The notes beneath the pieces were generated by a model, which worked only from the letters and a program-made list of their open reading frames with translations, had not been told where the DNA came from and searched no databases. Positions 10,255 to 11,353 of a stretch of 11,494 nucleotides of DNA are shown in pieces (position 1 is the first letter of the stretch; every line of letters starts with the position of its first letter). Made by a program: the position numbers and the translations under genes. The stretch is from a virus (lineage: Duplodnaviria > Heunggongvirae > Uroviricota > Caudoviricetes): IMG/VR virus record IMGVR_UViG_3300018488_000078; one strand, 5' to 3'.

Positions 10255-10560
10255 ATGGCAACGGCTAACAAAAACGCAAAATCACAACTGACAACTGTCA
10301 GAGTCCCACTAGATGTTATGCAAGGGATGGAATCCGTTAAGCTGGACGGTGAAAGCAATGCCGGATTTATCGTAACCGCCATGCGCGGAGAAATAGCCCG
10401 CCGCCAAGCAGAAGGCAGCGGAGAAAATCCCCTTGTGTCGTCACTGGATGCCCTGGCTAAGGTCGAACAAATCGGCATCAAAGCAGCCGAGGAGATCGGG
10501 CAACTCGTCACCGTCGCGCGTGAAGAACTCCAGCGACGCAAGGTCAAAGAGCATGAATAG
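10255..10560 (+). CDS. Ribbon-helix-helix (Arc/Mnt/CopG-like) transcriptional regulator, putative
   Basis: ATG 10255-10257 with AGGAG 8 nt upstream. Segment TTVRVPLDVMQGMESVKLDGESNAGFIVTAMRGEIARRQ fits a beta-strand, helix, G-x-N turn, helix pattern typical of RHH proteins. Confidence 0.55.
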   Translation: MATANKNAKSQLTTVRVPLDVMQGMESVKLDGESNAGFIVTAMRGEIARRQAEGSGENPLVSSLDALAKVEQIGIKAAEEIGQLVTVAREELQRRKVKEHE

Positions 10561-10617
10561 CCAATATCAGCGCCATAGTTTGAGGAACACAGGCGCATTG
10601 CTTTACAGGACAGCACC

Positions 10618-10797
10618 ATGAGCGACACAGAATCAACCAAAACACCATCACCAACTCGTAAGAGACGACGCAAAAATATAGCGCATGAACATGAATCAGA
10701 AAGATTCGCACCTTGTTCGTTTGCTCTTGAGAAATTCCTTAAAGAGCACAGGAAAAAGCTCTCGTTGCAAACCTTGGAACGAACCAAATCTGACTGA
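10618..10797 (+). CDS. Small basic hypothetical protein, 59 aa (below the ORF-track size cutoff)
   Basis: ATG 10618-10620 with AGGA 7 nt upstream; hand translation MSDTESTKTPSPTRKRRRKNIAHEHESERFAPCSFALEKFLKEHRKKLSLQTLERTKSD; stop TGA 10795-10797. Confidence 0.3.
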   Translation: MSDTESTKTPSPTRKRRRKNIAHEHESERFAPCSFALEKFLKEHRKKLSLQTLERTKSD

Positions 10798-10893
10798 TCA
10801 CATTGCCCACCAGCCGCAAATGTGGCATTGTTGGTGATGCTTTTGTTTTCCCTTGTTCCCACTGGCGACCCTTTTGCGGTAGCCTTTGTTTTG

Positions 10894-11353
10894 TCACTGA
10901 ATGCGGTTACCAAAGTAAAACTCAGGCTGATATTCACGTATCAGCGTTTTTTCTTCTTCCTCCAGCTCACGCTTTTTGCGCTTACATGCCTGTAGCTCCC
11001 TCCCCTTCTCGCTGGCACTTATTTGATATTGCTCTTTACGGCGGGAAAAATCCTGTAATGCACCCCACGGGATACCATAAGCCCCCGTTTTTCTGATACC
11101 TGGTATCACATTTCTGAATACCCAGTTACTGAAACGATGAGCAAATGTGCCAGGCGTCGTTGCTTTGCGGCTGCGGGCTATTAGTTTGTAGAAACCTGAC
11201 TCAGAGATAATTCTCATATTCTGATTTCCTCCTGGGGTGTAAGTTAAATTTACTCCCTTTTCATCATCATCAAGCATCTGCAACGCCGTACGCGAATTGG
11301 TTAGTTCCAGCGCAGCACAAACATCTTTTGCAACAAACCACGGATCGCCGTTC
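10894..11353 (-). pseudogene. Bro-N domain antirepressor-like gene, 5' end cut by the IS element
   Basis: The minus-strand frame stays open from the IS junction: ...NGDPWFVAKDVCAALELTNSRTALQMLDDDEKGVNLTYTPGGNQNMRIISESGFYKLIARSRKATTPGTFAHRFSNWVFRNVIPGIRKTGAYG. This is a typical Bro-N pattern (DGEPWFVAKDV..., ESGLY.LI.RSRK, WV...V.P.IRKTG). The ORF-track start at 11283 is a TTG inside the domain, not the real start. Confidence 0.75.

Follow-up and report, generated by a model that had tools for sequence, protein, structure and literature searches.

What does the ribbon-helix-helix (RHH) regulator encoded beside a Bro-N domain gene in this satellite control? The window i.e. the whole stretch of 11,494 nucleotides analysed here, carries at 10255-11353 a plus-strand RHH gene and a small basic ORF that converge on a minus-strand Bro-N gene. 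The immI region of phage P22 consists of mnt, arc and ant, with RHH repressors paired with an antirepressor, and the preliminary description of this locus proposed the same logic i.e. an RHH repressor acting on an antirepressor gene. Its account of the gene arrangement was accurate: each of the three ORFs is where it was placed, the RHH and Bro-N genes face each other with their 3' ends, and the end coordinate that it gave, 11353, is the exact junction with an insertion sequence (IS).

The satellite and its convergent genes

The window is a helper-embedded satellite of the Gram-negative PICI type, inserted in a lambdoid prophage, where it interrupts the portal gene. Its terS, capsid, decoration, SSB and primase genes are flanked by a portal fragment and an S49 peptidase gene, and this combination of flanks and gene set matches the layout of helper-embedded PICIs, which is made up of Integration, Bro, Replication and Late zones (PMC10111431). 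In an intact relative (L001) the island splits the portal gene, all genes lie on one strand, and the zone order is complete, running from Integration (int, AlpA) through Bro and Replication (primase, SSB) to Late; here int and alpA lie beyond the IS, outside the window. An intact element of this kind is carried by APEC O2-211. The satellite genes run leftward, co-oriented with the helper late operon, the exceptions being the RHH gene and the small ORF. The genes and associated features of concern are:

1561-2334: C-terminal fragment of the portal gene (the S49 peptidase gene is also in the window)
7207-8961: primase gene, in the leftward operon
9867..10064, minus strand: Icd-like gene of 65 aa, a P4 Kil homologue, first in the leftward replication operon
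9867..10937, minus strand: Eta-like long ORF of 356 codons, in frame with the Icd-like gene
10255..10560, plus strand: gene for a YlcI/YnfO-family RHH protein of 101 aa, the candidate satellite immunity repressor
10618..10797, plus strand: small basic ORF of 59 aa, co-directional with the RHH gene and with its own AGGA ribosome-binding site
10864..10893, plus strand: hairpin and T-run resembling an intrinsic terminator, at the end of the RHH/small-ORF transcript
10894..11353, minus strand: Bro-N gene remnant, residues ~41-192 of a 192-aa protein
11354..11494, plus strand: left end of an IS3-family insertion sequence, whose terminal repeat starts TGAACCGCCCC; matching records are annotated as IS3 family transposase

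The assignment of the plus-strand protein to the RHH regulators held for its family and its predicted fold, but curated RHH sequence models stayed below threshold. The protein matched the NCBIfam model YlcI_YnfO_N (NF041551) over residues 9-50 with 63.3 bits (cutoff 30; E=1.6e-17) and PHROG 6522 (1.5e-64), and its AlphaFold2 model (mean pLDDT 82) has an extended N-terminus followed by helices at 19-28 and 35-54 i.e. the N-terminal beta-alpha-alpha unit of ~45 residues that defines the RHH superfamily fold, with a long C-terminal helix (59-100) after the RHH domain (~residues 9-55), as in Mnt. No Pfam RHH model scored over threshold for this protein or for members of its family. Sub-threshold matches were to PSK_trans_fac, in 21 of 28 close family members (best 1e-3), and to Arc (3.2e-4), RHH_1 and TacA1, in one distant family member each; we take all four as RHH-type families. 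An exhaustive profile search defined a small family of 93 clusters, with every link to the RHH Pfam models sub-threshold, and searches of the PDB by sequence and by profile gave no RHH match. Foldseek returned nothing better than an insignificant match to Arc. Many of the closest structural matches were RHH antitoxins. When aligned with hhalign, the beta-strand and helix A fell in register with Arc (pairwise E 0.0039, probability 8.5%), with the beta-strand motif R-x-P-x-[DE]-V aligned to that of Arc, and the probability against Mnt was 1.1%. The gene has a dN/dS of 0.12. The plus-strand protein is supported as an RHH-type regulator with predicted DNA binding. We found nothing relevant on YlcI/YnfO function in the literature. 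The helper prophage carries a YlcI paralogue of its own, whose beta-strand differs from that of the satellite protein.

The small ORF is probably a real gene. Within Escherichia its product is 66-100% identical, its indels keep the frame, and its core (ERFAPCxFxLExFLKE) is invariant; wherever E. coli loci have the ORF, it starts 57-58 nt past the RHH stop, its dN/dS is 0.38, and it matches PHROG 21027 (5e-15). Pfam and NCBIfam gave no match for it, it was undetected in the nine RHH loci from other genera, and its structure model (two helices, pLDDT 70) is uninformative. The terminator-like hairpin that follows has a folding energy of -15.1 kcal/mol (z -3.3) in L001 versus -9.1 kcal/mol in the window, where it is weakened by one stem mismatch.

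Candidate operators and promoters

The sequence GTGTGTTTC is present in three exact copies, at 10156-64, 10180-88 and 10225-33. Nowhere else in the window is there a match, even with one mismatch allowed, and in L001 the 10-mer is confined to the intergenic region between the RHH and Icd-like genes across 25.5 kb that take in Bro-N, alpA and int. The copies are arranged around two promoters as follows:

10094..10127, minus strand: leader hairpin of the leftward transcript, with conserved ACGCCCCG...CGGGGCGT and then a conserved C-rich motif, TCTAACCAnCAACG
10156..10188: candidate operators O1 and O2, an inverted repeat (GTGTGTTTCATG-N9-CATGAAACACAC) across the core of the predicted leftward promoter
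10165..10193, minus strand: predicted leftward promoter of the Icd-like/primase operon, a consensus match only
10219..10224, plus strand: candidate -10 of the RHH promoter, TATACT with TGTG before it, read from the sequence
10225..10233: candidate operator O3, the third exact copy (GAAACACAC), directly after the RHH promoter -10

The predicted leftward promoter comprises a -35 (TTGACG, 10193..10188), a 17-nt spacer and a -10 (TAACAT, 10170..10165). With 2 sites in the region where 1.7 are expected by chance, the promoter scan is not significant by itself. In relatives, a GTCAA element is kept at the same position beside O2, the -10 of the RHH promoter is conserved in most as TGTGTATA(A/C/T)T, and the candidate operators keep the same distances to the RHH ATG (about -99, -75 and -29). 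What varies is the sequence of the repeat, together with the beta-strand residues of the RHH protein, giving six classes:

QLTTVRV or QLFTVRV: GTGTGTTTC
QSLTARI: GTGTAAG
KNIRI or KNVRI: GTGTGTATTTA
RIDARV: GTGTCGGACAC
ALKARV: GTGTGGCCCAC
MKNIRF: a different repeat set

The QSLTARI class is common to elements of Enterobacter soli and E. coli; the GTGTAAG sites are those of L018 and L020. One locus (L018) encodes a small-ORF protein identical to that of the window together with a different RHH N-terminus and different operators, a mix that suggests that the putative DNA-binding end of the RHH protein and its operators are swapped as a cassette. The co-variation lends indirect support to a predicted dimer whose two-stranded ribbon would read the repeated sites. 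Co-inheritance of linked sequence, rather than recognition, could be partly responsible for the co-variation of protein and repeat.

We consider it reasonably probable that the RHH protein is the satellite immunity repressor of the replication operon, within an immunity region of the P4 type. It would bind the three ~10-bp sites, two of which form an inverted repeat on the -35/-10 core of the leftward promoter, the predicted driver of the genes for the Icd-like protein (the P4 Kil homologue), primase, capsid and terS; the third lies just downstream of the candidate -10 of its own promoter. With this placement of sites the protein would silence the replication and packaging genes and regulate itself, the leftward and RHH promoters being the putative targets of repression and O3 the likely site of autoregulation. 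Counting against an RHH repressor, AlpA has been described as an activator required for the induction of Gram-negative PICIs, and no repressor was described for them (PMC6092414).

Antisense frame, Bro-N gene and proposed regulation

The primase operon is headed, as in P4, by a small Kil/Icd-like protein, NF033153 matching both the Icd-like protein (1.2e-17) and the C-terminus of the P4 eta/kil ORF (1.2e-20). The Icd-like gene is also nested, as kil is, in a longer ORF that starts beside the upstream vis/alpA-side gene and spans the promoter. The CI immunity RNA and seqA targets of P4 have no detectable counterpart: with an Icd-like gene present an RNA of the C4/isrK type was to be expected, but Rfam gave none at gathering threshold in the whole window and none at E<=10 in 9600-11000.

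On the strand opposite the RHH gene, the Eta-like ORF spans that gene, the small ORF and the promoter/operator region, and it shares 44 nt with the 3' end of Bro-N. Of 19 loci, 17 keep the frame open, over 264-536 codons; the prototype Gram-negative PICI, EcCICFT073, has the same arrangement of RHH, small-ORF and Icd-like genes with an open frame of 434 codons. Because the third codon positions of both strands coincide, this could be a functionless chance 'shadow' of the plus-strand genes, leaving the 65-aa Icd-like gene as the only real one. Within the RHH gene alone, and given its protein sequence, an antisense frame would be open by chance with P 0.23-0.50 per gene; the product of the long ORF is rich in Ser, Cys, Leu and Arg and has no Pfam domain; the antisense dN/dS (0.25) exceeds the sense value (0.12); and the frame is broken in two loci (L007 and L010). 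We nevertheless regard a chance shadow as unlikely. The frame is also open across the non-coding, AT-rich promoter region. In this 190-nt intergenic region the Eta-like frame has 0 stops in 11 of 17 loci, compared with 2-8 stops in the other two frames, and one stop in four further loci; shuffling of the region gave P(open) of 0.01-0.03, and the open frame persists in lineages with different operators. The RHH genes themselves avoid codons that would close it: none of 115 codons before CAx ends in T (19% in control genes) and none of 1682 codons is Tyr (2.8% in controls). In P4, moreover, the homologous kil is nested in eta (PMC10111431). Selection thus appears to keep the Eta-like frame open, as with P4 eta, and translation of the frame is predicted; no clear start codon or ribosome-binding site was identified for it in the window.

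The minus-strand gene facing the RHH gene was correctly recognised as Bro-N, with 68.2 bits against PF02498 (gathering score 25.6) over profile positions 9-96 of 96. Measured against an intact relative of 192 aa, it retains residues 41-192; an IS3-family insertion that starts at 11354 has removed the start codon and the first ~40 codons, making it a pseudogene here. Similarity to relatives stops at 11353-11356, the orfA ATG of the IS is at 11408 (MTKNTRFSPEVRQRAVRMVLESQGEYDSQ...), and the junction is absent from every complete E. coli genome in our collection. The preliminary description had held that its reading would be undermined if Bro-N were intact and functionally unrelated in relatives; intact it is, in the 192-aa relative.

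Bro-N could still matter if its product were a post-translational antirepressor of the satellite RHH protein or of the helper CI, independently of any cis-regulation by RHH. Bro-network genes fill this slot in many PICIs (PMC10111431), an AntA/AntB gene occupies it in L019, the long ORF of EcCICFT073 retains part of Bro-N at its N-terminal end, and the corresponding operon of P4 encodes the helper-derepression protein epsilon. However, identical or near-identical RHH/operator modules occur without a Bro-network gene (L015, L016 and L018), no phage protein exceeds 60% identity to the Bro-N protein, and this over its Bro-N domain alone, a search for a characterised homologue found none, and the gene was dispensable enough to be disrupted by the IS here, which together make a post-translational role improbable.

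It is very unlikely that the RHH protein and the small-ORF product are instead an antitoxin and its toxin i.e. an autoregulated addiction pair unrelated to control of the satellite life cycle. The RHH antitoxins among the closest structural matches would fit such a pair, as would a two-gene operon with the RHH gene first and one copy of the repeat at its own promoter. However, the divergent promoter of the replication operon carries two of the three repeats, the small ORF is separated from the RHH gene by a 57-nt gap and has its own ribosome-binding site, and it was undetected in all nine loci of other genera. Short RHH forms of 59 aa, which lack the toxin-binding tail, still have the same small ORF as partner. 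PADLOC, run for defence systems and toxin-antitoxin pairs, gave no match, and neither Pfam nor NCBIfam matched the small ORF.

The wiring proposed in the preliminary description, from RHH repressor to antirepressor gene, was not supported by the mapping of the candidate operators. All of them lie at 10156-10233, at least 660 bp from the Bro-N stop codon and beyond the RHH gene and the small ORF, with none near Bro-N, alpA or int, and the RHH gene shares its promoter region with the Icd-like/primase operon, not with Bro-N. Neither an operator on the antirepressor promoter nor a repressor gene divergent from or upstream of the antirepressor, as in immI, was found, and intact relatives have Bro-N after int and alpA, co-directional with them and behind an intrinsic terminator. 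The pairing is not conserved either: the RHH gene has matches in 711 of 5426 E. coli genomes, whereas the RHH gene and this Bro-N gene occur together in 52; a separate Bro-N gene is absent from the nine RHH loci of other genera and from EcCICFT073, and the same RHH/operator class occurs without Bro-N in L015-L017. Pfam found the Bro-N domain alone in the protein, with no P22_AR_N or ANT domain that would indicate homology to P22 Ant. An immI-type cassette, in which RHH represses a Bro-N antirepressor whose release induces satellite or helper, is thus highly improbable, despite the Mnt-like C-terminal helix, the low-probability register with Arc and the anti-repressor label that Bro-N relatives carry at the annotation level in databases. 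Bro-N appears not to be under cis control of RHH, and is best explained as the variable 'Bro-zone' gene of the int-alpA-side transcription unit, an optional cargo gene inactivated by the IS here.

If the RHH protein is the immunity repressor of the replication operon, the Eta-like ORF would offer a way around it. The Kil-like gene is nested in a stop-free ORF whose start lies where the upstream gene ends, in a region built like that of P4 immunity. By analogy with P4, transcripts from upstream, either from the alpA promoter or by read-through from the helper late operon, would be translated through the Eta-like ORF and would thereby extend into the replication genes even under repression; a collision with transcription of the RHH gene would be a further consequence. 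More tentatively, YlcI/YnfO RHH proteins may be the missing master repressors of Gram-negative PICIs in general (EcCICFT073, capsid-forming and helper-embedded elements), with exchangeable repressor/operator classes, each gene lying antisense inside an Eta-like ORF whose translation from AlpA-driven or helper-late transcripts overrides the repressor; we think it possible that this wider proposal is right, without favouring it.

If it is right, the region would do with a protein what the RNA immunity switch does in P4, by means of two genes that overlap on opposite strands. Fillol-Salom et al. (PMC6092414) called the difference from Gram-positive PICIs a mystery, and the YlcI/YnfO RHH gene, the repeats and the antisense arrangement are absent from the accounts in PMC10111431 and PMC6092414. 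The region supplies a concrete candidate repressor with predicted operators and natural specificity variants, present in the tractable element EcCICFT073. The regulatory regions of PICIs and P4 may share ancestry through the Kil/Eta nesting, and ~700 bp may have both DNA strands under selection. For annotation, the lesson is that an 'antirepressor' beside an RHH gene does not make an immI cassette unless the location of the operators has been checked.

Comparison with known systems

The satellite resembles helper-embedded and other Gram-negative PICIs in its integration in, and co-orientation with, a lambdoid late gene, portal (PMC10111431, PMC6092414), shares the identical order of Integration, Bro, Replication and Late zones with the helper-embedded ones (PMC10111431), and shares the module of RHH, small-ORF and Icd-like genes with EcCICFT073. 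It differs from them in that Bro-N is cut by an IS and int and alpA are outside the window.

Compared with P22 immI, there is likewise a small RHH repressor, here a candidate, with candidate operators inside a promoter core; the beta-strand motif aligns with that of Arc, and an RHH domain followed by a C-terminal helix, which could drive higher-order assembly, recalls Mnt. Homology to Arc and Mnt is not established at hhalign probabilities this low. In contrast to immI, the candidate operators lie at the promoters of the replication operon and of RHH itself and not at that of an antirepressor, the RHH gene is convergent with Bro-N and not divergent from or upstream of it, and the Bro-N protein has none of the domains of P22 Ant.

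A close parallel to the region as a whole is the P4 immunity region (vis/orf88 - eta/kil - cI RNA - eps - alpha). In both, a 65-aa Kil/Icd-like protein of NF033153 heads the leftward operon, its gene is the C-terminal part of a far longer ORF whose start adjoins the end of the alpA/vis-side gene, primase lies downstream, and int and an AlpA-family gene lie upstream. The differences are that a CI/C4/isrK-type RNA was undetected here, that the Eta-like ORF encloses, on the other strand, an RHH gene with its own candidate operators, a gene that P4 lacks, and that a separate Bro-N gene stands between alpA and the long ORF.

Like Stl (Rpr) of SaPIs and Gram-positive PICIs, the RHH gene is a lone regulator gene divergent from the replication/packaging operon of the satellite (PMC6092414), with many specificity variants. 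Unlike Stl, the protein has an RHH fold and is much smaller, and int is not co-transcribed with its gene. An AlpA-driven or read-through bypass is a likelier route of derepression here than derepression by a helper protein, as with Stl.

Finally, the region recalls immI of P1 and P7 (c4 RNA - icd - ant) in having an Icd-family gene together with a gene of the Bro network, whose members are annotated as antirepressors. Here, however, no c4-type RNA was found, the order is reversed, with Bro-N upstream of icd, and control appears to be exerted by a protein repressor.

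Genes of the region and their satellite setting

The preliminary description of a ribbon-helix-helix (RHH) gene and a small ORF facing a Bro-N gene was confirmed by the ORF list and the sequence, which give:

10255-10560, plus strand, ORF of 101 aa (RHH gene)
10618-10797, plus strand, basic ORF of 59 aa (small ORF)
end at 10894, frame open up to 11353, minus strand, Bro-N ORF

The end coordinate of that description, 11353, is an IS junction. In megablast against complete E. coli genomes, likeness to relatives ends at 11353-11356, and the sequence from 11354 onward (TGAACCGCCCC..., with the orfA start at 11408) has thousands of matches, all copies of one element with the annotation IS3 family transposase. 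Intact Bro-N has 192 aa in L001, the related locus of APEC O2-211, and only residues ~41-192 are left in the window; the Bro-N gene of the window is therefore a 5'-truncated pseudogene. The junction (11354-11494) was absent from all 5426 complete E. coli genomes searched, so the disrupted allele is either rare or derived from a draft or other genome.

In both the window and L001 the satellite sits inside the portal gene of a lambdoid prophage, and the element is a helper-embedded PICI (HE-PICI) of Tommasini, Mageeney & Williams 2023 (PMC10111431). HE-PICIs have four zones (Integration, Bro, Replication and Late), and the Bro zone is a dynamic region in which Bro-network genes swap domains (PMC10111431); the element type and its Bro zone are already known. 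Apart from the RHH gene and small ORF, which occupy the opposite strand, the genes lie on a single strand:

Gene order in the window and L001
first: helper terS, terL, 5' part of portal
next: satellite int, AlpA-type HTH gene, Bro-N
next: Icd-like gene, four small genes (one with a DUF4222 domain), primase, SSB
next: major capsid, decoration, second HTH gene, satellite terS
last: 3' part of portal, S49 peptidase

Coordinates of the flanking genes
window 261-1715, S49 peptidase
window 1561-2334, portal C-terminal fragment
window 1-3000, and L001 3725-4507 and 15390-16223, stretches that show the insertion in portal

By window coordinate, the satellite terS, capsid, decoration, SSB and primase genes come after the portal fragment and S49 peptidase. 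The second HTH gene, which the late zone holds between decoration and terS, is AlpA-like (4187-4570, minus strand, 127 aa).

The RHH protein and its candidate operators

Profile searches assigned both proteins to families, although no Pfam RHH model reached threshold for the 101-aa protein. The minus-strand product scores 68.2 bits for the Bro-N domain (PF02498; cutoff 25.6) and matches PHROG families labelled anti-repressor. The 101-aa protein carries the PGAP name YlcI/YnfO family and lies clearly above the cutoff of the NCBIfam model. A sub-threshold PSK_trans_fac match was present in 21 of 28 close members, and an exhaustive profile search gave one weak match each to Arc, RHH_1 and TacA1 among distant members; we take all four to be RHH-type families. 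In an AlphaFold2 model computed with 28 homologues (mean pLDDT 82), the N-terminal segment is extended and two helices (19-28, 35-54) precede a long C-terminal one; the R-V-P-x-D-V motif aligns with R-W-P-R-E-V of Arc. Our confidence in the RHH fold is moderate to high. Literature searches found nothing on YlcI/YnfO function and no description of an RHH repressor in Gram-negative PICIs. The helper prophage carries its own YlcI/YnfO paralogue (L001 19257-19490, 77 aa, beta-strand TRNIRFP) between the lysis genes and nohD, in a direction that also opposes the late operon.

The RHH gene and the Icd-like gene diverge across a 190-bp intergenic region that holds three exact copies of GTGTGTTTC:

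10156-64, candidate operator O1
10180-88, candidate operator O2
10225-33, candidate operator O3

There is no further match in the window, even at one mismatch, and in 25.5 kb of L001 the 10-mer is confined to the corresponding three places, with no copy near Bro-N, alpA or int. Copies 1 and 2 form an inverted repeat (GTGTGTTTCATG-N9-CATGAAACACAC) that spans the predicted leftward promoter TTGACG-17-TAACAT, and copy 3 adjoins a TATACT element that precedes the RHH gene. Repeats occupy the matching three positions, at about -99, -75 and -29 relative to the RHH ATG, in 20 related loci (Escherichia, Xenorhabdus, Photorhabdus, Enterobacter, Serratia, Erwinia and others). The GTCAA element, which is the -35 when read on the opposite strand, is conserved among them, and the repeat sequence changes in step with the RHH beta-strand, the pattern that would be expected of a repressor and its operators.

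RHH beta-strand and accompanying repeat in the related loci
QLTTVRV, GTGTGTTTC
QSLTARI, GTGTAAG
KNIRI, GTGTGTATTTA
RIDARV, GTGTCGGACAC
ALKARV, GTGTGGCCCAC
MKNIRF, another repeat set

The pattern points to the Icd-like/primase operon, together with autoregulation, as the RHH target rather than Bro-N. In the related locus L018 the region 3986-4525 is mosaic relative to window 10255-10797, with a small-ORF protein 100% identical to that of the window and an RHH N-terminus and operators of a different class. This suggests that repressor/operator cassettes are exchanged by recombination, as in lambdoid immunity regions.

The small ORF is probably a genuine gene, accessory to the RHH operon. It lies at a fixed distance after the RHH gene in all but one E. 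coli locus examined, is also present beside a short 59-aa RHH without Bro-N and in EcCICFT073 (the prototype Gram-negative PICI), and shows frame-preserving indels, a conserved core and a dN/dS of 0.38. It matched no recognised family except a PHROG of unknown function, and was not detected outside Escherichia. In the terminator that follows it, A at window 10881 (C in L001) creates a stem mismatch, and predicted stability falls from -15.1 kcal/mol in L001 to -9.1 kcal/mol in the window.

The leader of the leftward transcript (10065-10130, minus strand) can form a hairpin, ACGCCCCG...CGGGGCGT, whose stem holds across genera, where some of the changes are compensatory. Next comes an almost invariant C-rich motif, TCTAACCAnCAACG, which directly precedes the ribosome-binding site of the Icd-like gene. 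The site may serve Rho loading or some other control at the RNA level; it matched no Rfam family.

Bro-N as a candidate partner

The preliminary description also proposed the logic of P22 immI (mnt, arc, ant), in which RHH repressors are paired with an antirepressor. The protein types agree with that reading; the wiring is not supported, because the candidate operators are not near Bro-N, the pairing is not conserved and terminators lie between the genes. The RHH gene has matches in 711 of 5426 complete E. coli genomes, and the RHH-to-Bro-N stretch is found in 52. The slot between the RHH module and alpA in E. coli may be empty or hold an unrelated 178-aa gene, an AntA/AntB gene or pseudogene fragments, and no homologue of the window Bro-N was detectable in any of nine RHH loci from other genera. 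Three further loci (L015-L017) have the operator class of the window, yet lack Bro-N. The closest phage protein to the Bro-N domain in the collection searched was at most 60% identical. In L001 a strong intrinsic terminator with a U-run (13640-13690, minus strand, -16.1 kcal/mol, z -3.4) lies between alpA and Bro-N, ~25 nt ahead of the Bro-N start, and a second terminator stops the RHH/small-ORF transcript short of Bro-N. Pseudomonas AlpA is a processive antiterminator (PMC7969949 and PMC9371919); AlpA or the Q protein of the helper may therefore be needed for reading into Bro-N and the Eta-like ORF described below. It is possible that RHH and Bro-N antagonise each other at the post-translational level.

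The Eta-like frame and comparison with EcCICFT073 and P4

The Icd-like gene (9867-10064, minus strand) is the C-terminal part of a 356-codon, Eta-like ORF (9867-10937, minus strand), which overlaps the 3' end of Bro-N, runs antisense to the small ORF and the RHH gene and crosses the promoter/operator region. The frame is open over 264-536 codons in 17 of 19 loci and broken in the other two. In the AT-rich intergenic 190 nt it is stop-free in 11 of 17 loci (P(open) of 0.01-0.03 by shuffling), and the other two minus-strand frames have 2-8 stops. The frame shares its third codon positions with the RHH gene; an antisense stop would take either a codon ending in T ahead of CAx or a Tyr codon that follows a C- or T-ending codon. 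In 17 distinct RHH genes, none of the 115 codons ahead of CAx ends in T (19% in the window's other genes) and none of the 1682 codons is Tyr (2.8% in those genes); given the protein sequence, openness within the RHH gene alone has a chance probability of 0.23-0.50. The RHH protein is the one constrained in sequence, since dN/dS is lower in sense (0.12) than in antisense (0.25), and the antisense frame seems mainly to be kept open.

Function is deduced throughout from comparing sequences, and the proposed mechanism is as follows. In the quiescent state RHH would occupy O1/O2 and O3, keeping the constitutive leftward promoter silent and limiting its own synthesis. The island is co-oriented with the helper late operon, and upon helper induction alpA-side or terminator-resistant helper late transcription would enter the Eta-like ORF, colliding head-on with RHH transcription; Eta-like translation would shield the transcript so that icd, primase and late genes are reached regardless of RHH. 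In the window the IS has severed this upstream connection and made Bro-N inactive, and the point change also weakens the plus-strand terminator. No description appears to exist so far of the RHH/operator module, of its specificity classes or of the way it is embedded antisense in the Eta-like ORF.

EcCICFT073 has int and alpA, then an opposite-strand small ORF and 59-aa YlcI RHH, then Icd-like through primase, with its own repeat class. AlpA is an activator required for induction of Gram-negative PICIs (Fillol-Salom et al. 2018). A 434-codon open frame (L023 7752-9053) in frame with its Icd-like gene starts right after alpA and carries an N-terminal Bro-N remnant (…GVNLTYTPDGNQNMSIISESGFYKLI…), which suggests that the Eta-like protein once had Bro-N as its N-terminal domain.

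In P4, kil is nested in eta as the Icd-like gene is in the Eta-like ORF, the C-terminus of the eta/kil ORF matches the same NCBIfam Icd-like model, and eta overlaps the end of vis. Translation of eta stops termination of transcripts from the upstream promoter (summarised in PMC10111431). P4 immunity is exerted by CI RNA, whereas no C4/isrK-type RNA was detectable in the region studied here. On the basis of this nesting, the Icd-like match and the negative RNA result, we read the region as a P4-type immunity region in which an RHH protein repressor, encoded on the opposite strand, would take the place of the RNA.
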